Positions 47,106 through 63,428 are shown, numbered from the stretch's first letter. The stretch: DNA of 64,000 nt from an uncultured Bacteroidota bacterium (GCA_942493265.1 OW818688.1:4191147-4255146); one strand, 5' to 3'. Numbers and translations are program-made. Notes: generated by a model not told the origin, from the letters alone.

Positions 47106-47187
47106 AATATTGAATAATTCAACACTTTTTGATCGGTAATGCCTAAATTTACAAGCATCGGTCTGATGTTTGAATTAATAAATATGC

Positions 47188-48870
47188 ATGTTGAAAAGAG
47201 GAAAAAACAAAACCTGGATCGGAAGTCCATCCTTAAGAAAAAAGTACCTCAGGTTCCGATCATCGATTTACAGCCGCGTTGTCCTGGTTATCGGAATATT
47301 ATCCATTTTCCTGCTTGTATCCAACAATGTTATTTTCAGGTCGGTCAATGACGGATACATAAACTCCGTCATCCATCAGAACGGAAGCAATATAGGGTCA
47401 ATTGTTGAAGGGGCCTTATACCATTCCATGCTTGAAAATAACAGAAGCGCTCTACAGAATACGCTGGATGTTATCAATACAATGCCGGGGATCGATGATG
47501 TTAACATGTATGATAATCAGGACAATCTGGCCTATTCCTCCTTTTCTGAATCCAGGGAGGGCCACATTGATCCCAATTGCAAGGGGTGCCATAAGGATTT
47601 AGCCACAATGTTTCCGGTACAGGAGAAATCATACCGGATCATCGACAGCCACAGTGAATGCCTGATGAGTCAAACGGATAACAATACCCGGCATTTGCTG
47701 ATCCGGTCGCCTATCCTGAACGAACCCTCCTGTTATAATTCCAAGGCCTGTCATGCCCATGATCCGAATGAAGCGGTTCTGGGTTCCCTGTTTATTAAGA
47801 TGCCATTGGCAGATGTTGATGCAGCCGTTAAAAAATCATCGACTGAATTCTTTTTGCTTGCTGCGCTGATGACTCTTTTTATGGCGTCATTTCTAGTGCT
47901 TTTTACGCGCAATAACATTAAAAATCCGCTGAACGCAATCATCAAGGCCAGCGAAGCCGTATCAACCGGGGATAACAGCGCCCGTTTGGAAGTCAGTCCG
48001 GACCAGCTCGATGATATCAGAATGCTCTCCTATGCATTCAACCATATGCTGGATAATCTCCAGACTGCCAATACGGAACTTCAGAACTGGTCGAAACAGC
48101 TGGAGTACAAAGTCCAGAAAAAATCGGAAGAATTGGGCGAGGTTCAAAACGAACTTATTAATATTGAGCGAATTGCATCACTTGGAAAGCTATCATCCTC
48201 TGTTGCCCATGAGATCAACAACCCCTTATCCGGGATATTGGTATACACTAAGCTGGTTCATAAAAAGCTGAGTACGGAGAACATAGATCCCGAGAAAAAG
48301 AAATCCATGCTAACGCACCTGAAGCTCATCGAAGATGAAACAAAACGGTGCGGGGATATTGTGAAGGGACTGCTGGATTTCTCCAGAAAGGACCAGGATG
48401 ATTTTGAAACCAGGCATCTGAATGAAATTCTGCTGGAGACATACAACCTGATGGCGCATCCGATCAACATTGCCAATATCAACTTTCTGACAGACTTCAG
48501 CGCGGTTCATGATTTAACCTGGTGCAGTCCCAATCAGATCAAGCAGGCATGCGTGGCTATACTGGTCAACGCTTCCGAGGCGGTGGCTGAAAATGGAGAA
48601 GTTGTGTTCAGGAGCAGTAATCCGGATGCGGATACCATAAAATTCGAGATAACCGATAACGGAGCAGGCATCGCTCCGGAGGACATTCCGCATGTTTTCC
48701 AGCCGTTTTTCACAACCAAGAGCAACGGTGCCGGCATCGGACTCGGATTATCGATTGTACACGGTATTATTCAGAGTCATAACGGTAAAATTGATATAAA
48801 ATCAGAGCCGGGAAAGGGAACCACCGTTTCGATAACCCTGCCACTGGTAACTAATAAAGGAGACGAATGA
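47188..48870 (+). CDS. Sensor histidine kinase with periplasmic Cys/His-rich domain (one CXXCH), HAMP, HisKA, HATPase
   Basis: 560 aa with two TM helices flanking a ~190-aa loop. The loop contains CKGCH (47578-47592) and C-X5-CHAH (47731-47760). A HAMP-like segment follows, then H-box SSVAHEINNPLSGI and the G-box GAGIGLGLSIV. Confidence 0.85.
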   Translation: MLKRGKNKTWIGSPSLRKKYLRFRSSIYSRVVLVIGILSIFLLVSNNVIFRSVNDGYINSVIHQNGSNIGSIVEGALYHSMLENNRSALQNTLDVINTMPGIDDVNMYDNQDNLAYSSFSESREGHIDPNCKGCHKDLATMFPVQEKSYRIIDSHSECLMSQTDNNTRHLLIRSPILNEPSCYNSKACHAHDPNEAVLGSLFIKMPLADVDAAVKKSSTEFFLLAALMTLFMASFLVLFTRNNIKNPLNAIIKASEAVSTGDNSARLEVSPDQLDDIRMLSYAFNHMLDNLQTANTELQNWSKQLEYKVQKKSEELGEVQNELINIERIASLGKLSSSVAHEINNPLSGILVYTKLVHKKLSTENIDPEKKKSMLTHLKLIEDETKRCGDIVKGLLDFSRKDQDDFETRHLNEILLETYNLMAHPINIANINFLTDFSAVHDLTWCSPNQIKQACVAILVNASEAVAENGEVVFRSSNPDADTIKFEITDNGAGIAPEDIPHVFQPFFTTKSNGAGIGLGLSIVHGIIQSHNGKIDIKSEPGKGTTVSITLPLVTNKGDE

Positions 48871-50210
48871 TGGCAAAGAAAATCTCAATTTTAATCGTCG
48901 ATGATGAACGATCGGTGCGTGATTCGCTCTTTAATTGGTTTATCGAGGACGGATACCGGGTTGAATGTGCTGAAAATGCCAAAGCTGCCTTAACAATGCT
49001 GGAATCCGACAATTTCGACATCATTCTGGCCGATATCAAAATGCCGGGTATGGACGGACTGGAAATGCTGAGGAGAATAAAATCCCTGAAAAAGGAATCG
49101 ATAGTCATTGTTATGACGGCATTTGCAACCGTGGATACCGCTGTACAGGCATTGAAGGACGGAGCATTTGATTATGTGACCAAACCATTTGATCCTGACG
49201 ACTTATCCCATCTGATCAGGAACGCATCAAAACAGATCATACTCAGTGATGAAAACGAATCGCTGAAGGAGCGGGTGGTATCGCTGGAAAACGTTGAAGA
49301 TCTGATTGGCACCAGCGAAGCAATTCAGATGGTGCTGAAGCAGGTTGAAAGTGTTGCCCAATCCAATTCTTCGGTCATAATCACCGGAGAGAGCGGAACT
49401 GGCAAAGAACTCATTGCCAGGGCTATTCACGCCAATTCACCCCGAAAATTCTTTCCTTTGGTGAGTGTACATTGCGGAGCGCTTACCGAGAGTTTGCTGG
49501 AGAGTGAGCTGTTTGGCCATGAGAAGGGAGCATTTACCGGAGCCATGTACAATCGGAAAGGCCGGTTTGAAATGGCTGATGGCGGCACCATTTTCCTGGA
49601 TGAGATTGCCACGATTTCAACCAAAATGCAGGTAGAACTGCTTCGGGTACTGGAATCAAAAAGCTTTATCAGGGTTGGCGGAAATAAAGAGATTACCTCA
49701 GATTTCAGGGTCATATGTGCCACCAACAGGGATTTAAAAAGTATGGTAGAGAACGGTACTTTTCGCGAAGATTTGTATTACCGGTTGAATGTGGTCAACA
49801 TCCATGTTCCACCCTTACGTGACCGGACCGGGGATATCCCGCAGCTGGTTGAGTATTTCATCAGAAAATATTGCACTTCGATGAACCGGCTTCCGGTTAC
49901 CATCGAGGCCCAGGCATTAAAACGTTTGCAGGAATTCGATTTCCCGGGAAATATCAGGGAATTGGAGAACATGGTTGAACGGGCCATTGTCATTGGAAAC
50001 GGCAGGAAGATTACCATGAAAGACCTGCCACTGCAAAAAAGTATCATTACCAATTCCACGGAAAGCCTGGATGATGTTGAAAAGCACCACATTCTGCAAA
50101 TTCTGACCAATCACGAATGGAACATAACGCGAACGGCAAAAGCATTACAGGTTGACCGGGTGACCCTCTACAACAAAATCAAGAAATACAATCTCAAGCC
50201 TATTGATTGA
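48867..50210 (+). CDS. Sigma-54-dependent response regulator (REC, AAA+, Fis-type HTH; NtrC family)
   Basis: 447 aa with REC (ILIVDDE...ADIKMPGMDG), Walker A GESGTGKE, the GAFTGA loop (EKGAFTGA) and a C-terminal HTH. ATGA overlap with the kinase gene. Confidence 0.9.
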   Translation: MMAKKISILIVDDERSVRDSLFNWFIEDGYRVECAENAKAALTMLESDNFDIILADIKMPGMDGLEMLRRIKSLKKESIVIVMTAFATVDTAVQALKDGAFDYVTKPFDPDDLSHLIRNASKQIILSDENESLKERVVSLENVEDLIGTSEAIQMVLKQVESVAQSNSSVIITGESGTGKELIARAIHANSPRKFFPLVSVHCGALTESLLESELFGHEKGAFTGAMYNRKGRFEMADGGTIFLDEIATISTKMQVELLRVLESKSFIRVGGNKEITSDFRVICATNRDLKSMVENGTFREDLYYRLNVVNIHVPPLRDRTGDIPQLVEYFIRKYCTSMNRLPVTIEAQALKRLQEFDFPGNIRELENMVERAIVIGNGRKITMKDLPLQKSIITNSTESLDDVEKHHILQILTNHEWNITRTAKALQVDRVTLYNKIKKYNLKPID

Positions 50211-50246
50211 TAATGCATTAAACAAATTTAATACGGGCTGTGCCTC

Positions 50247-50780
50247 ATGATTGAAAAAGGAGTGGAACTAATCTCATTCGGATATTTTGAGGATGATTTT
50301 CTCGAAAAGATTGCCCATTCCGTAGCCCGCGAGTATAATGTCCAGGTGCATTTCAGGGAAGGCCATTTTGATCTCAGTGAATTTTATGATCCCGCCCGAA
50401 GGCAATACAATGGCAATCTGCTGTTGCAGGAAGTTGACAGACAATATGCTGCAGAATCCTCGAAAACTTTCGGATTGTTTTATGTAGATCTGTTCATCCC
50501 GATTCTGACCTATATATTCGGACAGGCATTTTTGGGAGGAAGAACCGCGATTGCCTCGATTTACCGGCTCAGCAATGAGCGCTATGGATTAAGGGAATAC
50601 GAGGATCTTCTGCTGGAGCGGCTCACCAAGGAGGTTATCCACGAACTCGGGCACACTTTCGGGTTGATTCACTGTCATGTTCCGGCCTGTGTAATGGGTT
50701 CAAGCACCTATGTGGAAGATATCGACCAGAAGAGCCCGAACCTGTGCAGCAAGTGCAGGGAGGAGGTGCAGTTGTTATGA
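50247..50780 (+). CDS. Archaemetzincin-like zinc metalloprotease
   Basis: 177 aa. HELGHTFGLIHCHVPACVM...CSKC closely matches the archaemetzincin signature HEXXHXXGX3CX4CXM...CXXC. Confidence 0.7.
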   Translation: MIEKGVELISFGYFEDDFLEKIAHSVAREYNVQVHFREGHFDLSEFYDPARRQYNGNLLLQEVDRQYAAESSKTFGLFYVDLFIPILTYIFGQAFLGGRTAIASIYRLSNERYGLREYEDLLLERLTKEVIHELGHTFGLIHCHVPACVMGSSTYVEDIDQKSPNLCSKCREEVQLL

Positions 50781-50795
50781 ATCCCATGTTAAACA

Positions 50796-50861
50796 GTGTG
50801 AATTGTGTAACTTAATTGAATAATTGTGTAACACCAACAGGGCTTGCAATCATCATCTTTG
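50796..50861 (+). promoter_or_regulatory. Conserved 66-bp promoter/operator module, copy 1 (upstream of the AraC-family gene)
   Basis: GTGTGAAT-TG-TGTAAC, N10, AATTGTGTAAC, N24, CTTTG. The 11-mer AATTGTGTAAC occurs twice, 21 bp apart (50801 and 50822). The same architecture recurs at 54636 and 59267. Confidence 0.6.
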
Positions 50862-50888
50862 CCTGTTAGAGTATAAAAAAATGGAAAC

Positions 50889-51479
50889 TTGAAAATATTC
50901 ATCAAATATATGGTCAGCAACCGATGCATCATGGTGGTGAAGGAAGAATTGAAAAAACTCGGACTTCACTTTATCGTGGTAGACATGGGCGTGGTTGACA
51001 TTATGGAGGATATCACGAGCGATCAGAGGGAGCAGATCAGAACTTCGCTGATTAATTCCGGTTTGGAACTCATGGATGACAAAAAAGCAATGCTGATTGA
51101 GAAAATCAAATCGGTTATCATTGAAATGGTGCACCATTCGAATGAACTGATCAAAAGGAATTTTTCGGATTATTTAAGCGAAAAGTTGAATCATGATTAC
51201 ACCTATATGGCAAACCTGTTCTCCGAGGTACAGGGTACAACGATTGAGCATTTCATTATCTCCCATAAAATTGAAAGAATCAAGGAACTGATCATCTATG
51301 GCGAATTAAACATCACTGAGATTGCCTGGAAGATGAATTACAGCAGCGTAGCCCATCTGTCCAATCAGTTTAAAAAGGTAACAGGGCTTTCACCTTCCCA
51401 TTTTAAGAAATTGAAAGATAAGAGGAGAAATCCGATCGAGGACATAGGTTTACTGGAGCATCCGAACACACAAAACTAA
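50889..51479 (+). CDS. AraC-family transcriptional regulator (small N-terminal domain plus HTH_18)
   Basis: 196 aa with a TTG start, which gives the N-terminus MKIFIKYMVSNRCIMVVKEEL typical of this Bacteroidota AraC subfamily. AraC-type HTH (ITEIAWKMNYSSVAHLSNQFKKVTGLSPSHF). Confidence 0.8.
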   Translation: MKIFIKYMVSNRCIMVVKEELKKLGLHFIVVDMGVVDIMEDITSDQREQIRTSLINSGLELMDDKKAMLIEKIKSVIIEMVHHSNELIKRNFSDYLSEKLNHDYTYMANLFSEVQGTTIEHFIISHKIERIKELIIYGELNITEIAWKMNYSSVAHLSNQFKKVTGLSPSHFKKLKDKRRNPIEDIGLLEHPNTQN

Positions 51480-51480
51480 A

Positions 51481-54198
51481 ATGGACAAAACAATCACACC
51501 TCAGTCACAATACGCAAGCAGTTTGATCGAAGCCAGTCTGGACCCGCTAATAACAATCAGTCCCGTTGGAATTATCACTGATATGAACGGTGCCATGCTC
51601 AGCATCACAGGCATGACCCGCGAGGAACTCACCGGTACCGACTTTTTTGAATATTTTACTGAACCGGCAAAGGCCCGAAGGGTAATGCAGCTGGTTATTA
51701 CCAAAGGATTTGTTACTGATTCTCCCCTCACCCTTCGGCATGCGAACGGACGGCTGACCGATGTTTTGTTTAATGGTACAGTGTATAAGGATCGCGAAGG
51801 TATCGTTCAGGGAGTTATAATTGTAACGCGGGATATTGGCGAACAAAAATGGGCCATTGAGCTACTCAAAGCCAATAAAGAGCTTGCCTTTCAAAACCAG
51901 GTAAAAGAGAAGCGGGCCGCGGAGCTGGTGATCGCCAACAAGGAACTTGCTTTCCAAAACGATGAGAAAGAAAAGAGGGCAGCAGAATTGGTGATTGCCA
52001 ACAAGGAACTTGCTTTTCAAAATGACGAAAAAGGAAAGCGGGCTGCGGAGCTGGTGATTGCCAACAAGGAACTTGCCTTTCAAATCGGAGAAAAAGCAAA
52101 GCGCGCAGGTGAATTAGTTTTGGCGGATAAGGAGCTGGTCTATCAGAACAAGGAGAAGAAAAAGCAGGAAATTGCTACAATAGAGCTTAAAGCAGTCAGT
52201 AATTCAGCAAAACTCGACTCACAATATTCACGGAGCCTGATAGAAGCGAGTCTGGACCCGCTGTTCACGATCAATCTGGAAGGAAAAATCACTGATCTGA
52301 ATGATGCTTCTGCCAACATTACCGGTGTTTCCAGGGATAATTTAATCGGCTCGGACTTCTTCGACTATTTCACCGAACCTCAGAACGCACGTGAAGTGTA
52401 TCAGGAGGTATTTGCAAAAGGTTTTGTGGCAGATTATCCATTAACCATCCGGGACGGCAAGCTGACCGATGTTTTGTTCAACGGATCTGTTTATAAAAAT
52501 GACAGTGGCGACGTACAGGGAGTGGTGGTGGTTGCCAGGGACATAACCGATCAGAAAAGAAATGCCGCTGAATTAACTGAGGCGATTGTGTTTGCCGAGC
52601 TGGCAACAGGTTTTGCTGAGGAAGCCAAATTAAAAGCCGAAAGTGCCACGATTATTGCTGAAAATGCCGTGAAGGCCAAGCAGCAATTTCTTTCGAACAT
52701 GAGTCATGAGATCCGTACCCCGATGAATGCCATTATCGGATTTACGAAAGTTCTGCTTAAAACCGAACTCACATCCAAGCAAAATGAATACTTAACCGCC
52801 ATAAAAATGAGCGGCGATGCTTTAATCGTACTGATCAATGACATCCTGGACCTGGCAAAAGTTGATGCCGGAAAAATGACATTTGAGCAAACCCCATTCA
52901 AAATGGCCCTGTCGATATCAGCCATGCTCCATTTGTTTGAAACAAAAATCCAGGAAAAAAACCTGAAACTCATAAAGGAATACGACAGAAGGATCCCGGA
53001 GATATTGGTTGGTGACCCGGTTCGGTTACACCAGATCATATTAAACCTGGTTAGCAATGCCGTTAAATTCACAACCAAAGGATCTATTACGGTTGCGGTG
53101 CGTTTACTGAATGAAGATGAGGAGAAGGCAACCGTCGAATTCTCCGTTAAGGATACCGGTATAGGCATACCGGAAAATAAAATAGGAAAGATCTTTGAAA
53201 ATTTCCAGCAGGCATCAAGCGGAACCTCAAGGCTTTACGGCGGAACCGGTTTGGGCCTGGCCATTGTGAAGCAATTGGTGGAACCACAGGGAGGCACTAT
53301 TAAAGTTGTGAGCAAGATGGGTGAAGGATCGACCTTCAGCTTCATTCTGAACTTTCAGAAAACCACCGCTCAAACCCAGCTGGAATCGGAAATTGTAGAA
53401 CTCGACAGTGAAATCACCAACATCAGGGTGCTGGTTGTTGAAGACATTCCACTGAATCAATTATTGATGAAAACATTACTGGATGAGTTCAAATTTGAAT
53501 GTGAGATTGCTGGAAATGGTCAAATCGCCGTTGATAAGTTAATGGCTAATTCCTTTGATATCGTCCTCATGGACTTACAGATGCCTGAAATGAACGGATT
53601 CGAAGCTACGGATTACATCAGGGGCAAGTTGAAGTCGGATATCCCGATCATCGCCCTTACGGCCGATGTAACCACCGTTGACCTGGCAAAATGCAAGGCA
53701 GTGGGCATGAACGATTATATCGCAAAACCCGTTGACGAAAGATTACTGTACAGCAAGATTGTTGGACTGGTAAAAAATCCGAACCTCATTAAAACTGCTA
53801 AAATAGAGGACATGTGTACTGAAGATAACGAAAAGGTCCGGTGCATCGACCTCGATTACCTGACACACCGTACAAAATCAAATCCAAAGCTGATGGCGGA
53901 AATGATTGCAGCCTATCTGGAACAAACCCCTCCACTGATTTCAGCCATGAAAAAAAGTCTGGCCGAAAAAGACTGGAACCTGTTGTATTCAGCGGTTCAT
54001 AAAATGATTCCGTCATTTTCCATCATGGGAATCAGCATGGATTTCGAAATTATGGCCAAAACCGTTCAGGAATTTGCCAGCACGCAAAAACAGGCTGAAG
54101 GCATACCGGCTTTGGTTTTGAAACTAGAAAACATTTGCAATCAGGCTTGTGACGAATTAAATGAAGAGTTAACCCGTATAAATGAAACCAACTCATGA
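51481..54198 (+). CDS. Hybrid sensor histidine kinase: PAS, repeat linker, PAS, HisKA, HATPase, REC, HPt
   Basis: 905 aa with two PAS domains (SLIEASLDPL... appears twice). H-box FLSNMSHEIRTPMNAIIGF, HATPase (DTGIGI, GGTGLGLAIVK), REC (VLVVEDIPLN...LMDLQMPEMNG...KP) and a helical HPt-like C-terminus. Confidence 0.9.
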   Translation: MDKTITPQSQYASSLIEASLDPLITISPVGIITDMNGAMLSITGMTREELTGTDFFEYFTEPAKARRVMQLVITKGFVTDSPLTLRHANGRLTDVLFNGTVYKDREGIVQGVIIVTRDIGEQKWAIELLKANKELAFQNQVKEKRAAELVIANKELAFQNDEKEKRAAELVIANKELAFQNDEKGKRAAELVIANKELAFQIGEKAKRAGELVLADKELVYQNKEKKKQEIATIELKAVSNSAKLDSQYSRSLIEASLDPLFTINLEGKITDLNDASANITGVSRDNLIGSDFFDYFTEPQNAREVYQEVFAKGFVADYPLTIRDGKLTDVLFNGSVYKNDSGDVQGVVVVARDITDQKRNAAELTEAIVFAELATGFAEEAKLKAESATIIAENAVKAKQQFLSNMSHEIRTPMNAIIGFTKVLLKTELTSKQNEYLTAIKMSGDALIVLINDILDLAKVDAGKMTFEQTPFKMALSISAMLHLFETKIQEKNLKLIKEYDRRIPEILVGDPVRLHQIILNLVSNAVKFTTKGSITVAVRLLNEDEEKATVEFSVKDTGIGIPENKIGKIFENFQQASSGTSRLYGGTGLGLAIVKQLVEPQGGTIKVVSKMGEGSTFSFILNFQKTTAQTQLESEIVELDSEITNIRVLVVEDIPLNQLLMKTLLDEFKFECEIAGNGQIAVDKLMANSFDIVLMDLQMPEMNGFEATDYIRGKLKSDIPIIALTADVTTVDLAKCKAVGMNDYIAKPVDERLLYSKIVGLVKNPNLIKTAKIEDMCTEDNEKVRCIDLDYLTHRTKSNPKLMAEMIAAYLEQTPPLISAMKKSLAEKDWNLLYSAVHKMIPSFSIMGISMDFEIMAKTVQEFASTQKQAEGIPALVLKLENICNQACDELNEELTRINETNS
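51859..52173 (+). repeat. Five in-frame tandem 63-bp repeats encoding ELVIANKELAFQN(D/Q)EKEKRAA-type 21-mers
   Basis: Read directly from the sequence. The copies differ mainly at synonymous or conservative positions. They lie between the two PAS domains of the hybrid kinase. Confidence 0.9.
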
Positions 54199-54626
54199 GT
54201 AAAGAGAAAATAAAAATCTACCTGGTAGATGACGATGCTGTATTTTTAAAATCCCTGGAAATTGATTTCCTGCAGCATGCCGACTTTACGATTGAAACTT
54301 TTGCAACAGGTGAACTATGCATTGGGGCATTGTCGGACTCCCCCGACGTGATCATCCTGGACTATTTCCTTGACGGAATAGATAAGAATGCTATGAACGG
54401 GATTGAAACACTTGATAAAATCAAGGCATTCAACCCGGAAATTCCCGTTATCATATTGTCATGTCAGGACAAGATCGAAGTAGCGGTTAACTGCATGCAT
54501 CATTTGGCATTTGACTATGTTGTCAAGAGTGAAACGGCCTTTGTACGGTTACAAAAAATTATCACATCCATTTTCCGCCAACAAAAACTGGAAAAAGAAT
54601 TAAACTGGTACATGGATAGAATGTAG
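54195..54626 (+). CDS. Single-domain response regulator (CheY-like receiver)
   Basis: 143 aa with IYLVDDD, ILDYFL and a conserved K (VVKSE). No output domain. ATGA overlap with the hybrid kinase gene. Confidence 0.85.
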   Translation: MSKEKIKIYLVDDDAVFLKSLEIDFLQHADFTIETFATGELCIGALSDSPDVIILDYFLDGIDKNAMNGIETLDKIKAFNPEIPVIILSCQDKIEVAVNCMHHLAFDYVVKSETAFVRLQKIITSIFRQQKLEKELNWYMDRM

Positions 54627-54635
54627 CCCGCAGAT

Positions 54636-54701
54636 GTGTGAATGATGTAACTCTTTGCATCAATTGTGTAAGGGTTATGCACCCTGGCTGAATGATCTTT
54701 G
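54636..54701 (+). promoter_or_regulatory. Conserved 66-bp promoter/operator module, copy 2 (upstream of AI-2E / GH130 / GT4)
   Basis: GTGTGAAT-GA-TGTAAC, N10, AATTGTGTAAG, N24, CTTTG. Spacing is identical to copies 1 and 3. Confidence 0.6.
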
Positions 54702-54774
54702 CTTTTGTTAAACTTAACAGAAAGCATAGAGATCATGAAAGCGGACCCATTATCAACGCCAAATTCCGGAAGCC

Positions 54775-55884
54775 ATGCTTAGTCCGGAATTAAAATTGCC
54801 GTTTTATGCAAAGTCAACGATCTTCTTTGTCGGAATAATCGCCCTGACGATTATCCTGTATATCGGCAAAAGCATATTCGTACCGATCGTATTTGCAATC
54901 ATTATAGCGATTGTGCTGCATCCGGTGGTGAATTCCATGGTACGCCTGAAAATAAACAGAGTAATGGCAATCATTATCACCTTGCTGCTCACCGCATTAA
55001 TCCTGTTTGCATTTGTTTCCCTACTTGTATCCCAGGCCAGTCGGTTTACAGAAACCTGGCCCCTGCTGGTAGAAAAATTCAACGGCACCATTGACGAAGC
55101 AATCATCTGGGCATCAGCTAATTTTGATATCAATCCGGAGAAGAGCCACGAATGGATCGCGAAAACCACCGCAGAAATCGCCAATAGAAGTACGGCTGCC
55201 ATCGGACAAACGCTGGTCATTTTCGGAAGTGTGGTAGTGGTACTCTTTTTAATTCCGGTATATGTCTTTCTGATCCTTTTTTACCAGCCTATCCTGCGCG
55301 ATTTTATCCGGAGGCTTTTTGGTGAGAGTGATCAGGGACAGGTAAACCAGATTGTAACACAAACAAAGACAGTTATCCAGCGCTATCTGGTCGGACTGGT
55401 TATCGAGGCGGTCATTGTAGCCTTGCTGGACACGGCAGCGCTGCTGATTTTAGGAATCGACTATGCGATCCTTCTGGCCATCATTGCAGCTGTTTTAAAC
55501 GTCATTCCATACATCGGGGGACTTGTGGCGGTAGCTCTTCCCATGATGGTCGCACTGGCTACCAAATCGACGCCCATGTATGCCGTTTACGTACTGATCG
55601 CCTATTACATTATACAATTGATCGACAACAACTATATCGTACCCATGATCGTGGCCTCCAAAGTTAAAATCAACGCGCTATTCTCCATAATAGTGGTATT
55701 CGTGGGCAATGCACTGTGGGGCATTCCCGGCATGTTTCTTTCCATCCCCCTCCTGGCCATTCTCAAGCTCTTCTTCGACAATATTGATCCTTTAAAACCA
55801 TGGGGATTCCTGTTGGGCGACACCATGCCTTCCCTTTTGGAGATTAAACCGATTTTGAAAATAATTAAAAAGAAACCAGCATGA
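54775..55884 (+). CDS. AI-2E family transporter (PerM/YhhT-like permease)
   Basis: 369 aa polytopic protein with the typical AI-2E C-terminal region (IPYIGG..., FLSIPLLAILK). Confidence 0.8.
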   Translation: MLSPELKLPFYAKSTIFFVGIIALTIILYIGKSIFVPIVFAIIIAIVLHPVVNSMVRLKINRVMAIIITLLLTALILFAFVSLLVSQASRFTETWPLLVEKFNGTIDEAIIWASANFDINPEKSHEWIAKTTAEIANRSTAAIGQTLVIFGSVVVVLFLIPVYVFLILFYQPILRDFIRRLFGESDQGQVNQIVTQTKTVIQRYLVGLVIEAVIVALLDTAALLILGIDYAILLAIIAAVLNVIPYIGGLVAVALPMMVALATKSTPMYAVYVLIAYYIIQLIDNNYIVPMIVASKVKINALFSIIVVFVGNALWGIPGMFLSIPLLAILKLFFDNIDPLKPWGFLLGDTMPSLLEIKPILKIIKKKPA

Positions 55885-56924
55885 TCCAGGTAAAAAAAGA
55901 AGGAGTCATAATTTATAAAACGGATCTGGAATTTGAAAATGAGGGCGTTCTTAATCCCGCGGTAATCCGTGAAGGAGACTCCGTACATATGTTTTACCGG
56001 GCCGTGCAGCAAGGGAATCACTCAAGTATCGGCTATTGCAGGCTGGATGGCCCTTTAAACGTTGTTGAACGGTGGAACCAGCCGATGCTGGTGCCCGAAT
56101 TTGATTATGAAACGCATGGCGTTGAAGATCCAAGGATTACAAGAATTGATGATACCTATTACATGACTTACACAGCCTATGACGGGATTAATGCGAGAGG
56201 AGCCCTGGCGACTTCAAAGAAATTAAGTCACTTCAAGAAAAAAGGGATAATTGTTCCGCCGGTAACCTATTCCGAATTTGTGTTTCTGGCAGAATCAGCA
56301 GGTAAAGTGAACGAGAATTATTACCATAATCACAAGTTTTATTATCAGGCAGCAGATCCTGAAAAAAAAATAATGGTATGGGACAAAAATGTAGTGTTTT
56401 TCCCCCGCAAAATTCAGGGCCAGTTTGTTTTTCTGCACCGGATAAGGCCAGGTATTCAGATTGCATCAGTAAAAAGTTTAGCCGGACTCACCAAGGCATA
56501 TTGGGATGCTTACTTTCTCAATTTCCAGGATCATATTGTGCTGGATCCGATCCATCAGCATGAGTCAAGCTACATTGGAGGGGGGTGTCCACCCATTGAA
56601 ACCGAACATGGCTGGCTCTTAATATATCATGGGGTGGAAGAAACGGAAAGAGGGCTGGTTTATTCAGCTTGTGCAGCCTTGCTGGATCTTGAAAATCCTT
56701 CAAAGGAGATTGCCCGGCTGCCCTATGCGCTATTCTCTCCACAATATAAATGGGAAGTGAAAGGGGAAGTGAATAATGTTGTATTCCCAACAGGAACAGC
56801 AATATTCGGTGATACGCTGTTTATTTATTATGGTGCCGCCGATACCCAGATTGCCTGTGCTTCGGTTCGCTTAACTGAATTACTGGCCGAGTTACTAATC
56901 AATATATCAAAAAATGAAATTTAA
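55881..56924 (+). CDS. Glycoside hydrolase family 130-like protein (beta-mannoside phosphorylase/hydrolase family, DUF377-type)
   Basis: 347 aa with the GH130-like motifs GVEDPRI, YMTYTAYDG and YYGAADT. ATGA overlap with the transporter gene. Confidence 0.7.
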   Translation: MIQVKKEGVIIYKTDLEFENEGVLNPAVIREGDSVHMFYRAVQQGNHSSIGYCRLDGPLNVVERWNQPMLVPEFDYETHGVEDPRITRIDDTYYMTYTAYDGINARGALATSKKLSHFKKKGIIVPPVTYSEFVFLAESAGKVNENYYHNHKFYYQAADPEKKIMVWDKNVVFFPRKIQGQFVFLHRIRPGIQIASVKSLAGLTKAYWDAYFLNFQDHIVLDPIHQHESSYIGGGCPPIETEHGWLLIYHGVEETERGLVYSACAALLDLENPSKEIARLPYALFSPQYKWEVKGEVNNVVFPTGTAIFGDTLFIYYGAADTQIACASVRLTELLAELLINISKNEI

Positions 56925-59265
56925 AATCGATTCTCAACGCTTCGAGGAAGGGTTAAACATAACCGGTCCATCGTATCCTTATATAAATCAGATACATCCA
57001 GGCAAGAACATTTCCAAAACCAAATCAAACGCAGTACACGAAGAAAAAGGCGGAGTGGCTGGAATTCTGATGATAACTTCCTATCCACCGAGAGAATGCG
57101 GAATTGCCACCTATTCGCAGGATTTAATCAAATCAATTAAAAACAAATTCAGCAGTTCGCTATCGATAAAGGTTTGCGCCCTTGAATCGGGGACCGAGAG
57201 CTATTCTTATCCACGTGAAGTAAAATATACGCTCAATACCAGTGCAGAGGAGGATTTTGACAGCCTGGCCAATAAAATCAATATCGACAGCCAGATTGAC
57301 ATTGTTTTGGTCCAGCATGAATTTGGCTTTTACAAACTGCAGGAACAAAAATTCGAACAGTTACTGCAGCAGCTGACCAAGCCGGTTGTGATCGTATTTC
57401 ATACCGTATTACCCAATCCGGATCAACAGCTTAAAACTAAAGTCCGGAATATTGCAGCCGCATGCAGGTCAATTATTGTTATGACCAATAATTCCGCAGA
57501 ATTACTGAGCGGATCCTATGATATCCCAAAACAAAAAATAACAGTCATTTCTCATGGAACCCATCTGGTTCAGCACCTGAGCAAAAAATTCCTGAAGGCG
57601 AAATATGGATTCAAGGGGCGGAGCATCCTCACCACCTTTGGGCTGCTCAGTTCGGGCAAAAGCCTTGAAACAACATTGGATGCACTTCCGGCAATCATAA
57701 AAAACAGTCCGGAAATTCTATTTCTGATTTTGGGAAAGACTCATCCCGAGGTTGTGAAATCAGAGGGTGAAAAATATCGTAACAGTTTGATTGCCAAAAT
57801 AGCACTCAATAAACTGACTGATCACGTTAAATTTGTCAACTCCTATCTTGCCCTACCGGATTTGCTGGAATATCTGCAGCTAACTGATATTTACCTCTTT
57901 ACCACGAACGACCCCAATCAGGCGGTGAGCGGAACTTTTGCTTATGCAATGAGCTGTGCCTGCCCGATCATCTCCACACCGATTCCACATGCAAAAGAAG
58001 TTTTGACTGACGATACAGGAATTATTTTTGACTTCCGGAACTCAGAACAGCTGGCTCATGGTGTTATCAGATTACTGAATGATGAAACACTACGTAAAAA
58101 CATCAGTTCTAACGTTTTACATAAAATCGTTCCAACCTCATGGGAGAATTCAGCGGTTGCACATGCCAGCCTGTTTGAAAAGATTGCGGGAGAAAATTTC
58201 AAAATACAATATGATCATCCGGTAATAAACCTGGACCATCTGACCAGGATGACAACGGAATCCGGCATGATTCAATTCTCAAAAATCAACCAGCCGGATA
58301 TCCGGTCGGGTTATACCCTGGACGATAATGCGCGGGCACTTGTTGCATGCTGCATGAATTTCAAATTGACGGGTGATGAAGAGATGGTATTTGAAATTCA
58401 GAATTACCTCCGGTTCATCAAGCGTTGCCTGCAATCAGACGGAAGTTTCCTGAATTACATTGATTCATCCAACGTGTTCTCCAATCAGAATTTCACTGAA
58501 AACCTCGACGACGCAAACGGGCGTGCTGTTTGGGCCCTGGGCTACCTGATATCGTTAAAATCATTGTTACCTGCCGGAATCATTTCCGAAGCAGAAAAAA
58601 TCATTAAAAAATCGCTGAAACGCATTGGCAATGTGCACTCCACCCGGGCAATGGCGTTTGCCATTAAAGGGTTGTATTACTATCAGGGCACCGTACCGTC
58701 AGCTGAGAATGTGAGTCTCATAAAAACATTTGCCGATCGTTTGCGCGAGATGTACAGACATGAATCCAATGAAAAATGGGAATGGTTTGAAGCCTATCTT
58801 ACTTATGCCAACAGCATTCTGCCTGAAGCCATGCTAATGGCATGGCTGGTTACAGGAAAGACTGATTATAAAGACATTGCGATACCGTCGCTCAGATTTC
58901 TTTTGCAACAAACATTTAAGGAAAAATGGATTGAGGTCATTTCGAACAAAAACTGGCTGCAAAAGGGTCAGGAAGCGAAACATTCAGGTGAACAGCCGAT
59001 TGATGTTGCCTACACCGTTATGACATTAGGCCATTTTTACGATGCCACCGGGGACCCGGCTTACCTGGCGAAAATGAAAATTGCATTCTCCTGGTTTTTA
59101 GGGAACAACAGGTTAAATCAGATTATTTATAACCCCTGCACCGGGGGCTGTTATGACGGTCTTGAGGATACCCATGTTAACCTGAATCAGGGTGCTGAAT
59201 CCACGGTAAGTTACCTCATGGCACGATTATCGGTCGAAAAATATCAGAAACATGATCCGGCATGA
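56914..59265 (+). CDS. GT4-family glycosyltransferase fused to a ~330-aa C-terminal domain of unknown function
   Basis: 783 aa. The N-terminal half has the GT4 layout (ILMITSYPPRECGIATYSQDL ... EPNQ-like region FTTNDPNQAVSGTFAYAM). The C-terminal half (from about TTESGMIQFSKI) is unassigned. 11-nt overlap with the GH130 gene. Confidence 0.7.
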   Translation: MKFKIDSQRFEEGLNITGPSYPYINQIHPGKNISKTKSNAVHEEKGGVAGILMITSYPPRECGIATYSQDLIKSIKNKFSSSLSIKVCALESGTESYSYPREVKYTLNTSAEEDFDSLANKINIDSQIDIVLVQHEFGFYKLQEQKFEQLLQQLTKPVVIVFHTVLPNPDQQLKTKVRNIAAACRSIIVMTNNSAELLSGSYDIPKQKITVISHGTHLVQHLSKKFLKAKYGFKGRSILTTFGLLSSGKSLETTLDALPAIIKNSPEILFLILGKTHPEVVKSEGEKYRNSLIAKIALNKLTDHVKFVNSYLALPDLLEYLQLTDIYLFTTNDPNQAVSGTFAYAMSCACPIISTPIPHAKEVLTDDTGIIFDFRNSEQLAHGVIRLLNDETLRKNISSNVLHKIVPTSWENSAVAHASLFEKIAGENFKIQYDHPVINLDHLTRMTTESGMIQFSKINQPDIRSGYTLDDNARALVACCMNFKLTGDEEMVFEIQNYLRFIKRCLQSDGSFLNYIDSSNVFSNQNFTENLDDANGRAVWALGYLISLKSLLPAGIISEAEKIIKKSLKRIGNVHSTRAMAFAIKGLYYYQGTVPSAENVSLIKTFADRLREMYRHESNEKWEWFEAYLTYANSILPEAMLMAWLVTGKTDYKDIAIPSLRFLLQQTFKEKWIEVISNKNWLQKGQEAKHSGEQPIDVAYTVMTLGHFYDATGDPAYLAKMKIAFSWFLGNNRLNQIIYNPCTGGCYDGLEDTHVNLNQGAESTVSYLMARLSVEKYQKHDPA

Positions 59266-59266
59266 T

Positions 59267-59332
59267 GTGTGAATCATGCAACTTCCTTGAAAAGTTATGT
59301 AACATTTTCCGGTGCTGATGTAAAGACCTTTG
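59267..59332 (+). promoter_or_regulatory. Conserved 66-bp promoter/operator module, copy 3 (upstream of mlaEFD-dps)
   Basis: GTGTGAAT-CA-TGCAAC, N10, AGTTATGTAAC, N24, CTTTG. It starts 2 nt after the GT4 stop codon. Confidence 0.6.
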
Positions 59333-59349
59333 GCAGGAATTATAATACC

Positions 59350-60201
59350 ATGAAAAAAATAACTCATCCTTTAAAAATAAAGCCCATCCTGCGTGATGCG
59401 GAGAATGCCACGATCAGGATCAGTGAGAAAACTCTTGCAACCACCGAAAAGGTAAGCAATGTGATGACTGATTTCGCGGATGTTGTCCTCTTCATGGCAC
59501 GGATCTTCAAAGAAACCTTCAGCGGTAAATTTGAGTACCGGGAATTTTTCTATCAATGTTACAAGATCGGATACAAAACCGTACCGCTCATCTCCATTAC
59601 CGGAGCCATCATGGGTTTGGTACTGACCATTCAATCCCGCCCGACGCTGGCTGATTTCGGGGCAGTTTCACTGCTTCCGGGAATGGTAACGGTGTCGCTG
59701 ATCCGGGAGATGGGACCGGTGATAACCGCCCTTATCTGTGCAGGTAAAATCGGTTCGGGCATGGGTGCAGAATTAGGATCGATGCGGGTAACCGAGCAAA
59801 TCGATGCCATGGAAGTATCCTCCACCAATCCAATGAAGTTTTTGGTGGTCACCCGGGTACTTGCCGCAACCATCATGATACCCCTCCTGATTCTATACGC
59901 TGATGCCTTGGGCATTTTAGGAAGCTGGGCCGGAGCGAACCTCAAAGGTGACGTAACATTCGGACTCTTCTTCGCACAGGCATTCAATTATATCGGTTTT
60001 ATCGACTTGTTACCCGCCGTAATAAAATCCTTCTTTTTCGGTGCGGCGATAGGGGTGGTTGGATGCTATAAAGGGTACAATGCCGGCCGGGGCACTGAAA
60101 GTGTTGGACTGGCCGCTAACTCAGCTGTGGTAACCGGATCCCTGCTCGTGATCATTATTGACCTGGTAGCCGTACAATTCACCGACATGCTCGTATCATG
60201 A
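59350..60201 (+). CDS. mlaE: MlaE-like ABC transporter permease
   Basis: The track ORF starts at GTG 59269 and would translate the promoter module. I use ATG 59350, and ATG 59464 (MTDFADVV...) is an equally plausible start. MlaE-type TM pattern. Confidence 0.8.
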   Translation: MKKITHPLKIKPILRDAENATIRISEKTLATTEKVSNVMTDFADVVLFMARIFKETFSGKFEYREFFYQCYKIGYKTVPLISITGAIMGLVLTIQSRPTLADFGAVSLLPGMVTVSLIREMGPVITALICAGKIGSGMGAELGSMRVTEQIDAMEVSSTNPMKFLVVTRVLAATIMIPLLILYADALGILGSWAGANLKGDVTFGLFFAQAFNYIGFIDLLPAVIKSFFFGAAIGVVGCYKGYNAGRGTESVGLAANSAVVTGSLLVIIIDLVAVQFTDMLVS

Positions 60202-60941
60202 AAACATCTCAAAATGAATCGGTTATAGAAATCCGCAATCTGCAGAAATCTTTCGGACCGCAAGCGGTATTGCAGGATGTTACCTTACAGCTCTTCAAGG
60301 AGGAAAACCTGGTGGTACTGGGCAAATCGGGTAATGGGAAATCAGTATTGATAAAATGCATTGCCGGATTATTGGATTTTGAAGCAGGAAGTATTGACGT
60401 ATTTGGCAAAAACATAGCTGAACTAACGCGTGAAGAATTAGGTGAACTGCGACAGAAAATCGGATTTCTTTTTCAAAGCGGGGCACTGTATGATTCCATG
60501 ACAGTTAAGCAGAATCTTGAATTTCCGCTGCGCAGGATAAAAAGGGACCTGAGCGAGGCCAGTATAAAGGAAAAGGTAAATGAAGTGTTAGAAAATGTTG
60601 GACTGGCCGATGCATTGGACAAAATGCCATCCCAATTATCGGGCGGCATGCGGAAAAGGATCAGTCTGGCAAGAACAATTATAGTTGACCCGCTGATCAT
60701 GCTGTATGATGAGCCCACCACCGGACTTGACCCGTCGACATCAGATGAAATAAGTTCGCTGATCAATGCGGTTCAGAAGAAATACAAGACCTCCTCAATG
60801 ATCATCACGCATGATATAAATTGTGCAAGAAAAACCGGTGATCGGATTATCATGCTCGAAGAAGGTAAAATTTTTAAAGAAGGAAGCGTTAAGGATTTTG
60901 AAACCTCAGATAATGAGTTAATAAAATCATTTTTTATTTAA
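60198..60941 (+). CDS. mlaF: MlaF-like ABC transporter ATP-binding protein
   Basis: 247 aa with Walker A GKSGNGKS, signature LSGGMRKR and Walker B MLYDEPTTGLD. Confidence 0.9.
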   Translation: MKTSQNESVIEIRNLQKSFGPQAVLQDVTLQLFKEENLVVLGKSGNGKSVLIKCIAGLLDFEAGSIDVFGKNIAELTREELGELRQKIGFLFQSGALYDSMTVKQNLEFPLRRIKRDLSEASIKEKVNEVLENVGLADALDKMPSQLSGGMRKRISLARTIIVDPLIMLYDEPTTGLDPSTSDEISSLINAVQKKYKTSSMIITHDINCARKTGDRIIMLEEGKIFKEGSVKDFETSDNELIKSFFI

Positions 60942-60968
60942 AAACATAAGGATTTAAATTATAACAAA

Positions 60969-61676
60969 ATGGAAGCACACTCACACAAATTCAAAATACG
61001 GCTGGGCCTTTTTATTGCAGGCGGGCTGGCCATTTTCGTGATAGCGATTTTCATAATCGGCAAACAGAAAAACCTTTTTAATCCGGTATTTAAGCTGACG
61101 TCGGCATTTTATAATGTAAGCGGATTGCAGGTCGGAAATAACGTCAGGTTTTCCGGCATTAATGTAGGTACAGTTGATAGAATCACCATCATAAATGATT
61201 CAACTGTGAGAGTAGATATGATGGTCAGGAAAGAGGTAAACCAATTTATTAAAAGTGACTGCGGGGTGTCAATTGGATCGGAAGGTTTAATTGGCGACCG
61301 GCTGCTGATCATCTCACAGGGCAGCACAGATGCCCCGTTAGCCAAAGATGGGCAGCAACTTACATCAACGGAGCCGGTTGAAACGGATGCTATTGTAGCA
61401 AGCGTGCAGGTATCTGCCTTTAATTTTGAAATCATTACCCAGCAGCTGGCGGAGATTATGATCAACGTAAACAGCGGAGAAGGGACACTTGGCAAATTGA
61501 TTGCGGACACCTCCATTGCGCGGAATATCGACAGGACAATCCTGAACCTGAGGAAAAGCACCAAAGGATTAAATGAAAATATGGAAGCCGCCAAAGAAAA
61601 TATTCTTCTTAAAGGCTACTTCAACAGAAAGGCAAAAGAAGCTGAAAAAAAATCAAAAGAAGCTGAAAAAAAATGA
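60969..61676 (+). CDS. mlaD: MlaD-like MCE-domain protein
   Basis: 235 aa with an N-terminal TM helix and an MCE domain (VSGLQVGNNVRFSGINVGTVDRI). Lys/Glu-rich tail. Confidence 0.85.
   Translation: MEAHSHKFKIRLGLFIAGGLAIFVIAIFIIGKQKNLFNPVFKLTSAFYNVSGLQVGNNVRFSGINVGTVDRITIINDSTVRVDMMVRKEVNQFIKSDCGVSIGSEGLIGDRLLIISQGSTDAPLAKDGQQLTSTEPVETDAIVASVQVSAFNFEIITQQLAEIMINVNSGEGTLGKLIADTSIARNIDRTILNLRKSTKGLNENMEAAKENILLKGYFNRKAKEAEKKSKEAEKK
61633..61674 (+). repeat. Perfect 21-bp tandem duplication (CAAAAGAAGCTGAAAAAAAAT x2), each copy with an A8 run
   Basis: Read directly from the sequence. It encodes the KEAEKKSKEAEKK tail of the MlaD-like protein and ends at the ATGA junction with dps. Confidence 0.9.
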
Positions 61677-62146
61677 AAACCAACATAGGAATACCGGGTA
61701 ACGACATTGAGGCAATTTCTACGCTGCTCAACACCCTGCTGGCGGATGAATATACCTTGTACACTAAAACCCGGAACGCGCACTGGAATATCACCGGGTC
61801 GAACTTCAGTGAGCTGCACGAGTTTTTCAAAGCTGAATACATTGAACTGGATACTGTTATTGACAGCCTGGCACAAAGGATCCGTTCACTCGGTCATTTC
61901 GCACTCGGGAATCTGAAGGATTACCTGACTGTCACACATCTGGATGAAGACAACCACGACTTCAGCAATGCCAGGCAGATTCTCAGGACCTTATTCAACG
62001 ACCACGAAACGCTGATCCGGATAATCAGGAATGATATTGCGCCGGTTTCCTTGGAATTCAAAGACCTGGGTACAGCCGACTTCCTGACCGGTTTGATGGA
62101 ACTGCATGAAAAAATGGCCTGGGAACTCAGAGCGTTCTTATCTTAA
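61673..62146 (+). CDS. dps: Dps-family DNA-protection / ferritin-like protein
   Basis: 157 aa with LLADEYTLYTKTRNAHWNITGSNFSELHEFF, a typical Dps ferroxidase-site region. Confidence 0.9.
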   Translation: MKTNIGIPGNDIEAISTLLNTLLADEYTLYTKTRNAHWNITGSNFSELHEFFKAEYIELDTVIDSLAQRIRSLGHFALGNLKDYLTVTHLDEDNHDFSNARQILRTLFNDHETLIRIIRNDIAPVSLEFKDLGTADFLTGLMELHEKMAWELRAFLS

Positions 62147-62159
62147 ACAAATTCCACTA

Positions 62160-63428
62160 ATGACTAACGTAACCTTGCATAAAACTACATTAATTACAAT
62201 CCTGGTATTTGGCTGCATAATTGGCAGTTATGCTCAGCGCCCATTGACACCCGATGCATCGGTCACTCAGAAATTTTACTCGATCAATCATCATCAGCTG
62301 TTTTGGTTTTCCTCAGGAAAAAATCTGAAAAAAGCGGCTGAATGGCTGAAGGTAATTGAGTCATCCGGGCATTTAGGAATCCAGGTGGACCCAATCACCA
62401 TAAAAAACATCCGGACTGCATTAATGAACAGGAATGCACTCGATGGAGGCTATAAAGAACAGGCTGACAAACAGATAACCGAATTGGTTTTAAACTACAT
62501 GAGGGAGCTGCAACAAGGTAATATAAGCCTTGATTATGATGAAATCAGCCAGAACAGGGATACCCTTTATATTGACCGGCTGTTGAATTCCAAATTCTGG
62601 GAATCCGTGCCAAAAATAGTTGTGCGGCTCGATTGCAAAGACCCTGATTACCAGGCTTTGAAACAATACCTGCGGGATTCAGTCGCTGCAACGGACACCT
62701 TAAAATACAAAGCGGTAGTCATGGGAATGAATTACCGCAGATACCTTACCGTTAACCATCCGCCGGAATATATCCTGGTCAATATCCCGGAAGCTGAAGC
62801 GGCATATTACCAGAATGATTTGCGGGTGCTGAAGATGCGGGTAGTGGTTGGCAAAAAGAAAAATCCCACTCCGCTGATTGCTTCCAATATCACCAGCATT
62901 GTAACCTTTCCACATTGGAACGTACCCTATCAGATTGCCGTAACGGAACTGCTGCCAAAGGTTCAGAAGAATGAAAATTACCTGGAGCAGAACAATTTTG
63001 AGATAGTAGATGCGAAGGGCAATGTAGTGGACGATTCAGATTTGAACTGGTCGGAATATGATACCCGGAATTTTCCCTATTTTTTCAAGCAGGCAACAGG
63101 AGCCGACAATTCGCTGGGTGTTTTGAAGTTCAACCTTCAGAACCCTTTCAGCATATTCCTTCACTCTACCAGCGCATTGAATTCCTTTTCGAAAGACTTC
63201 AGGTTTCTAAGCCATGGCTGCGTTAGGCTTGAAAAGCCGTTTGAACTGGCTGATGCGCTGCTCCGGGGCAATATTGACCTGGAAGCGTTAAAGGGCGGGA
63301 AGAAAGACACTGAATCAAAAACGATCAAATTACCCGTGAAGATCCCGGTATTTATCATTTACATGCCCGTGAAAGTGGTGGGTGAACAAGTAACCGTGCT
63401 GAAGGATATTTACGGCCTAATTAAGTAA
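62160..63428 (+). CDS. L,D-transpeptidase (YcbB/YkuD-type)
   Basis: I prefer ATG 62160 (MTNVTLHKTT..., signal-like). YkuD catalytic motif HSTS...SHGCVRL. Confidence 0.85.
   Translation: MTNVTLHKTTLITILVFGCIIGSYAQRPLTPDASVTQKFYSINHHQLFWFSSGKNLKKAAEWLKVIESSGHLGIQVDPITIKNIRTALMNRNALDGGYKEQADKQITELVLNYMRELQQGNISLDYDEISQNRDTLYIDRLLNSKFWESVPKIVVRLDCKDPDYQALKQYLRDSVAATDTLKYKAVVMGMNYRRYLTVNHPPEYILVNIPEAEAAYYQNDLRVLKMRVVVGKKKNPTPLIASNITSIVTFPHWNVPYQIAVTELLPKVQKNENYLEQNNFEIVDAKGNVVDDSDLNWSEYDTRNFPYFFKQATGADNSLGVLKFNLQNPFSIFLHSTSALNSFSKDFRFLSHGCVRLEKPFELADALLRGNIDLEALKGGKKDTESKTIKLPVKIPVFIIYMPVKVVGEQVTVLKDIYGLIK

Follow-up and report, generated by a model that had tools for sequence, protein, structure and literature searches.

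The stretch of 64,000 nt from an uncultured Bacteroidota bacterium analysed in this work (GCA_942493265.1 OW818688.1:4191147-4255146; hereafter the window) carries the same 66-bp module in three consecutive intergenic regions, the first of them ahead of an AraC-family gene, which raises the question of what the module is, which protein reads it and which genes it serves. We consider it likely, from sequence comparison, that the module is an activator-dependent promoter of the housekeeping sigma factor of Bacteroidota, bound by the AraC-type regulator encoded after copy 1. The observations behind this reading concern the conservation of the module, its geometry, its location, its association with genes, and the co-variation between the protein and the DNA.

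The first-pass annotation of the window had reported a gap-free alignment of three 66-nt copies at 50796, 54636 and 59267, with boxes spaced 21 bp start to start, a 24-nt spacer and an end of the form xA(T/C)CTTTG. The coordinates and the alignment hold, and the spacings and the end were borne out in all three copies, which are composed as follows (bit scores refer to a profile derived from other genomes).

50796 to 50861, plus strand: module copy 1, predicted promoter of the regulator-kinase-receiver operon, 53.8 bits; GTGTGAAT 50796-50803, distal box TGTAAC 50806-50811, proximal box TGTAAC 50827-50832, -7-like box CATCTTTG 50854-50861.
54636 to 54701, plus strand: module copy 2, predicted promoter of the AI-2E transporter-GH130-GT4 operon, 56.6 bits; GTGTGAAT 54636-54643, distal box TGTAAC 54646-54651, proximal box TGTAAG 54667-54672, -7-like box GATCTTTG 54694-54701.
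59267 to 59332, plus strand: module copy 3, predicted promoter of the mlaEFD-dps-L,D-transpeptidase operon, 56.8 bits; GTGTGAAT 59267-59274, distal box TGCAAC 59277-59282, proximal box TGTAAC 59298-59303, -7-like box GACCTTTG 59325-59332.

Within the window the module is confined to these three copies. A repeat finder returned one three-member family of 38 nt, with two copies 71% and 79% identical to copy 1, and a search for GTGTGAATNNTGYAAC allowing up to two mismatches found three sites only in the 64 kb, every one of them exact (shuffle expectation 0.83). With a non-circular profile built from 136 instances outside the window, the copies reached 53.8-56.8 bits, the next-best site of the window 3.1 bits and the top of 100 resampled windows 7.7 bits; on the columns left free by the search pattern, the copies took ranks 1, 2 and 3 among 127,862 window positions. 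Copies 1, 2 and 3 begin 16, 10 and 2 nt past the stop codon of the preceding co-directional gene and end 27, 73 and 17 nt ahead of the next start codon, respectively. A TG at spacer positions 13-14 (module positions 50-51), singled out earlier as conserved, is present in all three copies, and we regard it as a coincidence because these positions vary among 139 instances in other genomes. The spacer of copy 3 also holds TGTAAA at 59319-59324, exactly 21 nt past the proximal box; this would-be third repeat was rejected and is probably due to chance, since the shifted register scores -2.6 bits with the profile.

The module belongs to a family of rigid architecture: AATGTGTGAATnATGTAAC, 15 nt, TGTAAC, 24 nt, nAnCTTTG. 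A loose search revealed four modules in a Prolixibacteraceae locus and two in a Paludibacter locus, with identical spacings. When one genome per species (596 Gb) was scanned with the pattern GTGTGAATNNTGYAAC-N15-TGTAA, at least 120 stretches matched, nearly all from Bacteroidota, compared with an estimated 9 or so matches expected by chance; the groups represented among the matches listed are Bacteroidales, Prolixibacteraceae, Chitinophagaceae, Saprospiraceae, Flavobacteriales, Hymenobacter and Lentimicrobiaceae. Conservation was counted over the 139 unique instances among the matches listed; it covers the repeat columns and extends to columns that the pattern did not fix, namely AAT ahead of the first G, A10, T17, T20, A27 and TT29-30, as well as to the downstream box, with A at +60 in 127 instances, C at +62 in 100, and TTTG at +63 to +66 in 136, 134, 119 and 92. 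Because these unfixed columns are conserved, the 24-nt spacer and the terminal box are true features of the family. Loci selected by the regulator protein only, and hence unbiased for spacing, gave the same picture: the inter-box distance was exactly 15 nt in 72 of 74 instances, and TTTG lay 24-25 nt past the proximal box in 68 of 82. The module, whose conservation in related genomes had been proposed as a check, is therefore kept in close and distant genomes alike, including the -7-like box at its fixed distance. The regulon had been called local, which proved too narrow a term for a regulon that is phylum-wide, as only 24 of the 120 motif-selected stretches (matches listed, each at most 8 kb) include the regulator gene.

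Some departures from the common form were noticed. Two matches come from outside Bacteroidota, one each from metagenome-assembled genomes (MAGs) of Ignavibacteriae (L051 1299) and Chlorobiales (L015 913); both have the tandem boxes and conserved flanks, with a downstream box TTTTTG or none, which fits other promoter types of sister phyla or misbinned contigs. A flavobacterial dialect, C(A/T)GTGAAT-nn-TACAAC ... TATAAC, pairs with regulators having S108, T128 and S159 (L001 9915-9985; also L148, L158, L190, L196 and L199, upstream of the regulator match). Upstream of some regulator copies a single-site promoter variant occurs instead, made of AATGTGTGAATTATGTAAC, about 20 nt, TATCTTTG and then a leader of about 110 nt (L128-L135, upstream of the regulator match; L005 9822-9870).

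The gene that follows copy 1 had been assigned to the AraC family, and Pfam supports that assignment.

50889 to 51479, plus strand: AraC-family regulator, 196 amino acids, TTG start; Pfam HTH_18 57.8 bits (cut-off 33.6) and HTH_AraC 26.8 bits (cut-off 26.6).

By a domain test the protein is an AraC/XylS member, having a C-terminal domain with two helix-turn-helix (HTH) motifs and seven modelled helices, colinear with MarA. Its homologs in Flavobacterium, Paludibacter, Prolixibacteraceae and unclassified Bacteroidota are 76-86% identical, and NCBIfam holds no curated family specific to it, only generic AraC similarity. The closest solved DNA-binding domains by sequence are of the YesN/AraT type (6swi and 3lsg). 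In the structure model (mean predicted local distance difference test score, pLDDT, 70) an N-terminal beta-alpha-beta-beta-alpha-beta domain is followed by a long helix and the seven-helix AraC domain. The N-terminal domain superposes on metallochaperones of the Atx1 and GolB type with a TM-score (target) of about 0.7 and a root-mean-square deviation of 2.1-2.6 Å, the Foldseek E-values being weak. In this HMA-like domain (residues 1-70, 50889-51100) the CxxC motif is replaced by S10-x-x-C13, and SxxC, M8 and R12 are invariant over 35 homologs; the lone conserved cysteine might serve as a redox or metal sensor. In Paludibacter three paralogs of the regulator are found inside 10 kb.

The first-pass annotation had predicted an autoregulated AraC-type factor, and this model gains support from loci chosen blindly with respect to the motif. 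Using the regulator protein alone we fetched 80 metagenome loci, 72 of which have at least 200 nt upstream of the gene; the full module, called at 12 bits or more, precedes the regulator gene in 50 of these 72, its box mostly 22-30 nt ahead of the start codon, and about 7 further loci have the single-site variant there. In all, the 80 loci contain 150 sites in 623 kb against none in reversed controls, and 132 of the 150 are on the strand of the regulator. No other DNA-binding gene is consistently linked to the module.

The strongest link between regulator and module is their co-variation, assessed with Fisher tests over 53 protein-selected loci. The first base of the upstream element is other than G in 9 of 10 loci with S at residue 108 and in 1 of 43 with A (p 2e-8), and the distal box is TACAAC in 5 of 6 loci with S at residue 159 and in none of 47 with other residues (p 2e-6). 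H159 is paired with TGCAAx in both loci that have it, and there the box alone is altered; among the four loci with S108 and N159, three are altered in the upstream element only and the module of the fourth (L161) is unaltered. In a colinear alignment, for which a MarA query identical in sequence to PDB 1bl0 was used, residue 108 corresponds to Q45 of MarA in recognition helix 3 and residue 159 to R96 in recognition helix 6, both of which we take to be DNA contacts in the MarA-DNA structure. Since the statistics ignore phylogeny, the co-variation is read as support for recognition by this protein and not as proof. If true, it suggests a small recognition code, in which S159 would favour TACAAC and S108 the C-starting element CTGTGAAT.

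That the module may act as a promoter is indicated first of all by where it lies. Only 6% of the instances fall wholly within a long open reading frame (ORF), as against 75% of random 66-mers, and in 133 of 141 instances among the motif matches listed a same-strand ORF starts downstream, with a median distance of 40 nt from box to start codon; modules that are intergenic and oriented towards a gene do not behave as a dispersed repeat unrelated to promoters, the outcome that would have spoken against the first-pass annotation. The terminal xA(T/C)CTTTG had been likened to the Bacteroidota -7 element TAnnTTTG, and the likeness is partial: the A and TTTG are conserved at a fixed place, while no more than 53 of the 139 instances (38%) have the first T. 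In Flavobacterium psychrophilum the sigmaA -7 box TAnnTTTG is placed at -12 to -5 from the start site (PMC9723704), so transcription is predicted to start near 50866, 54706 and 59337. With these starts the proximal box would occupy -39 to -34, the distal box -60 to -55 and GTGTGAAT -70 to -63. The -33 TTTG, found about 19 nt upstream of the -7 box in sigmaA promoters of Bacteroidota, is missing, and the TGTAAC box sits in its place. The lack of a -33 TTTG together with the weakened -7 box points to a promoter in need of an activator, which would sit over the -33 region. A sigma-70 consensus scan gave nothing at the modules; this consensus is not expected to fit Bacteroidota.

The genes behind copies 2 and 3, listed below, had been correctly assigned before, as had those behind copy 1, according to Pfam.

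54775 to 55884, plus strand: AI-2E family transporter (Pfam), first gene of unit 2, recurring near the regulator or module in other loci.
55881 to 56924, plus strand: GH130-family glycoside phosphorylase or hydrolase (Pfam, NCBIfam).
56914 to 59265, plus strand: GT4 glycosyltransferase fusion, 783 amino acids (Pfam).
59350 to 60201, plus strand: mlaE (Pfam).
60198 to 60941, plus strand: mlaF (Pfam).
60969 to 61676, plus strand: mlaD (Pfam).
61673 to 62146, plus strand: dps-type ferritin (Pfam).
62106 to 63428, plus strand: YkuD L,D-transpeptidase (Pfam).

The ORF map shows that genes inside each unit abut or overlap, and unit 3 ends after the L,D-transpeptidase because the next gene is convergent. 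The start of MlaE is ATG 59350 and not GTG 59269, which heads the mechanical ORF. The 73 nt that separate module 2 from the AI-2E gene contain a 15-codon ORF at 54736-54783 (MKADPLSTPNSGSHA), which overlaps the AI-2E start codon. This may be an upstream ORF, or else the transporter may have been given a wrong start.

Similar cargo was found elsewhere. The Prolixibacteraceae locus (L003) has downstream GH130, AI-2E transporter and 775-amino-acid GT4 homolog genes together with CsbD, YtxH and DUF5670 genes, and at least 12 other loci have MlaE behind the module. Among 130 first genes past the module in motif-selected loci (matches listed), Pfam recognised Ice_binding in 10, CsbD in 8, OmpA in 7, the regulator in 7, glycine-zipper in 6, MlaE in 5, DUF748 in 5 and DUF5670 in 4; 85 neighbours in protein-selected loci included Ice_binding (13), MlaE (7), DUF6629 (4), OmpA (4) and YtxH (4). 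As both recur in these data, the mla operon and the AI-2E/GH130/GT4 unit of the window are recurrent members. The module most often serves ice-binding-like proteins (DUF3494), six of which are encoded in a row in Paludibacter (L005 3471-9731); a paper on Psychroflexus torquis reports PAS/GAF two-component clusters adjoining an ice-binding gene and mentions that a light-sensing role has been suggested (PMC3914696). As in general stress regulons, there are small protective proteins such as CsbD, YtxH and Dps, and the whole looks like a protection programme for envelope and cytoplasm. If such a programme exists, its ice-binding-like, CsbD, YtxH, Dps, envelope-lipid and cell-wall genes would hint at freezing, drying or some comparable insult.

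The regulator shares its predicted operon with two signalling genes.

51481 to 54198, plus strand: hybrid histidine kinase, 905 amino acids (Pfam), aligning to ArcB, TorS and EvgS out to residues 883-898.
54195 to 54626, plus strand: single-domain receiver, 143 amino acids (Pfam Response_reg), with acidic pocket DDD, acceptor Asp56, Ser89 and Lys111.

The kinase consists of a PAS domain, five 21-residue repeats, a second PAS domain, HisKA, HATPase, a receiver and an HPt-like C-terminus (VHKMIPSFSIMG). As judged by sequence, all phosphorelay residues are present: the H-box SHEIRTP, the receiver domain, the HPt-like VHKMIPSFSIMG, and DDD/D56/S89/K111 of the separate receiver. The repeats, five tandem units ANKELAFQNxEKxKRAAELVI at 51871-52165 between the PAS domains, have a 63-bp period and about 80% DNA identity; they probably form a long coiled coil, whose length could vary with the number of units. 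In 34 protein-selected loci the regulator gene is followed by a hybrid kinase in 26, by a receiver in 28 and by both in 25, and the three genes are consecutive in the Flavobacterium, Prolixibacteraceae MAG and Paludibacter loci. Next to the trio, Flavobacterium and Paludibacter also encode a CheR-CheB pair and a CHASE3/4HB-GAF hybrid kinase (L001 14334-19407; L002 4645-10099; L005 10623-15739).

Upstream of the trio, the region 42546-50780 encodes a cluster of a PBP-like/glycine-cleavage-H fusion, a 4Fe-4S protein, an NrfD-type membrane protein and another GCV_H protein, and after it a sigma-54-dependent two-component system and an M54 (archaemetzincin-type) peptidase, none of them module-linked elsewhere. 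The two-component system and the peptidase were rejected as members of the system, being conserved neighbours in 1 of 205 loci.

Published expression data allow a view of what may be the same genes in F. psychrophilum. Table S4 of PMC9723704 lists 103 genes that remain in the lowest expression quartile throughout 64 samples (32 conditions), and many of them lie within one stretch, THC0290_1141-1210. The stretch includes the following entries.

THC0290_1150: AraC-family gene, 540 bp.
THC0290_1152: hybrid kinase.
THC0290_1153: receiver, 435 bp.
THC0290_1157: permease.
THC0290_1158: BrkB-type 'RNase BN'.
THC0290_1166: PH1107-type glycosidase.
THC0290_1167: group-1 glycosyltransferase, 778 amino acids.
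THC0290_1182: UspA.
THC0290_1187 and THC0290_1188: ABC permease and ATPase.
Many small proteins in addition.

The conditions covered growth phases, freshwater, mucus, plasma, blood, NaCl, peroxide, hypoxia and iron limitation, and the authors described the silent genes as 'mostly of unknown function' without further comment (PMC9723704). In the start-site table of that bacterium four starts are mapped in those 57 kb, none of them upstream of the matching genes. That the annotation-matched genes are silent in all 32 conditions agrees with their sharing an activator that stayed off throughout, and speaks against a general stress response of the classical kind. The envelope or stress programme predicted in the first-pass annotation is thus favoured by the identity of the cargo and disfavoured by the only expression data found, in which the annotation-matched genes are silent under many stresses. 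If the correspondence is true, the system offers a candidate explanation for the silent gene block of the largest flavobacterial transcriptome study.

As to binding, activation rather than repression, the start sites, coupling to the phosphorelay and the trigger, we infer the following course of events. Two regulator molecules would bind the module head to tail, and in each the first HTH would read the upstream half of a site of about 20 bp and the second HTH the TGTAAC box. The distal site would be complete, and the proximal one, weaker and overlapping the -33 region, would let the regulator recruit RNA polymerase. The regulator would activate its own operon and thereby form a positive loop. 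Its activity would most likely be set by the PAS hybrid kinase with HPt and the single-domain receiver, perhaps through the HMA-like domain; a phosphorylated receiver acting on that domain would amount to a split version of YesN/AraT-type regulators. Targets in the window would be the regulator operon, AI-2E-GH130-GT4 and mlaEFD-dps-L,D-transpeptidase, and across the phylum ice-binding-like proteins, CsbD, YtxH, OmpA, glycine-zipper proteins, DUF5670 and others. We put forward only tentatively, as somewhat less probable than its negation, the wider proposal that the regulator acts as master switch for protection or dormancy across Bacteroidota, in a programme run by a transcription factor with the housekeeping sigma factor, where Proteobacteria and Firmicutes employ an alternative sigma factor, and under 'split response regulator' control via the HMA-like domain.

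Several points weigh against the activator-promoter reading. About 15 of the 72 regulator loci have no upstream module, and the loci with S108 and S159 probably represent a single lineage of flavobacteria. A pattern from the window served as seed for the profile, a circularity removed by scoring on the free columns. The -7 box is atypical, with its first T at 38% and the C at +62 conserved in 72% of instances, and could also point to another sigma factor. An action of the kinase or the receiver on the regulator is a proposal. The correspondence with F. psychrophilum was drawn from annotation, gene size and gene order only.

The alternative that survives best, though we find it unlikely, keeps the same regulator and the same sites and makes the protein a repressor, or a repressor turned activator, so that the operons are off until a signal comes. 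AraC itself works in both modes, and genes silent in all 32 conditions are as expected under permanent repression no less than with a missing activator. Most AraC/XylS members, however, are activators, and the absent -33 element and weakened -7 box are typical of promoters that need one. Moreover, the proximal site stops upstream of the -7 box and covers neither that box nor the start site.

Slightly less likely still is that some other, unlinked protein reads the repeats, for instance a LytTR-type response regulator, the AraC-family gene being just a frequent target. Lying upstream of a gene is not enough to make a motif the target of that gene's product, and the position of the module before the regulator gene would also fit a gene that is a mere target of another factor; LytTR sites do show 21-bp periodicity adjoining the -35 region. 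Such a reader is unlikely because both linkage and co-variation point to the AraC-family protein: its gene alone among DNA-binding genes is consistently module-linked, and two recognition helices co-vary separately with two DNA elements. The conserved length of about 20 bp per site also suits one two-HTH AraC domain.

We think it improbable that an alternative sigma factor uses the module as its promoter, with TGTAAC for a -35 and CTTTG for a -10 element, in the manner of the sigma-driven stress regulons of other phyla. The AAC of the box does recall -35 elements of the extracytoplasmic function (ECF) type, the C at +62 is conserved beyond the sigmaA consensus, and the cargo is like that of the sigmaB, sigmaS and EcfG regulons. 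Yet the proximal box is separated from the A of the downstream box by 22 nt, compared with 16-18 nt in promoters of the sigma-70 family; conservation continues to about -73 and takes in another box one repeat farther up, beyond what any sigma factor reads; and no sigma gene is conserved nearby in the Flavobacterium, Prolixibacteraceae and Paludibacter loci. An ECF-type promoter was rejected as there is no conserved -10 element 16-17 nt past the box, and a sigma-54 promoter since GC is absent from copy 3 and is spaced 13 nt from GG in copy 2, where 10 would be required. Finally, an RNA element or a mobile or dispersed repeat in place of a promoter is very improbable: the position 2-16 nt past a co-directional stop codon would let read-through transcripts include the module, but Rfam 15 gave no covariance-model match at E<=1 over 47000-64000, the three copies share no fold and have ordinary stability (z-scores +1.0, -0.96 and +0.52), flanks are unconserved, and the modules are intergenic and directed towards a gene.

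To our knowledge nothing equivalent to the sigmaS, sigmaB or EcfG stress regulons has been described in Bacteroidota, and a search of the full-text literature found no such system, nor any description of this regulator, motif or regulon. The gap could be filled by the present system, with a regulator 76-86% identical across classes, a 66-bp architecture searchable phylum-wide and a candidate signalling trio. The module could also become a tightly off, inducible promoter for Bacteroidota genetic tools.

In its cargo of CsbD, YtxH, Dps, glycine-zipper and OmpA-type proteins the system resembles those of sigmaB (RsbK/RsbY/RsbM, Bacillus cereus), sigmaS (E. coli) and EcfG-NepR-PhyR (Alphaproteobacteria), and it would share with them an autoregulated master regulator under phosphorelay control. 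The CheR-CheB pair and CHASE3/GAF hybrid kinase beside the trio resemble RsbM/RsbK, which control sigmaB of B. cereus (PMC9912610, PMC12848376). It differs from these systems in the proposed use of a transcription factor with the housekeeping sigma factor, no alternative sigma gene being linked, and from general stress regulons in that the annotation-matched F. psychrophilum genes are not induced in stationary phase or by osmotic, peroxide, hypoxia, iron or starvation stress. YesN/AraT-type regulators, which also have the closest solved DNA-binding domains, give the phosphorelay an output via an AraC-type domain, as proposed here, but their receiver is fused, whereas here it is separate and the regulator has an HMA-like domain. 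Like the marbox of MarA, SoxS and Rob, each site of the module is asymmetric, spans about 20 bp and has its two recognition elements separated by one helical turn, and the co-varying residues align with Q45 and R96 of MarA; unlike there, where a monomer binds one site, the sites are tandem and unrelated in sequence.

The closest likeness in layout is to class II AraC/XylS activators, that is AraC at araBAD I1-I2, XylS at Pm and RhaS at rhaBAD, with two direct-repeat sites 21 bp apart. In those systems the proximal site lies over the -35/-33 region, the distal one is stronger, and a two-HTH domain sits on each site with its second HTH towards the promoter; the same is predicted here. In contrast to these proteins, the regulator has an HMA-like ferredoxin-fold N-terminus in place of a cupin sugar-binding domain, would act at a promoter of the Bacteroidota -7 type, is predicted to be co-transcribed with a hybrid kinase and a receiver, and is conserved together with its site over a whole phylum. 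The proposed mechanism is of a known type, AraC/XylS class II activation from tandem repeats, while the subfamily with its HMA-like domain and phosphorelay trio, the rigid phylum-wide promoter module and the regulon are new so far as the literature shows.

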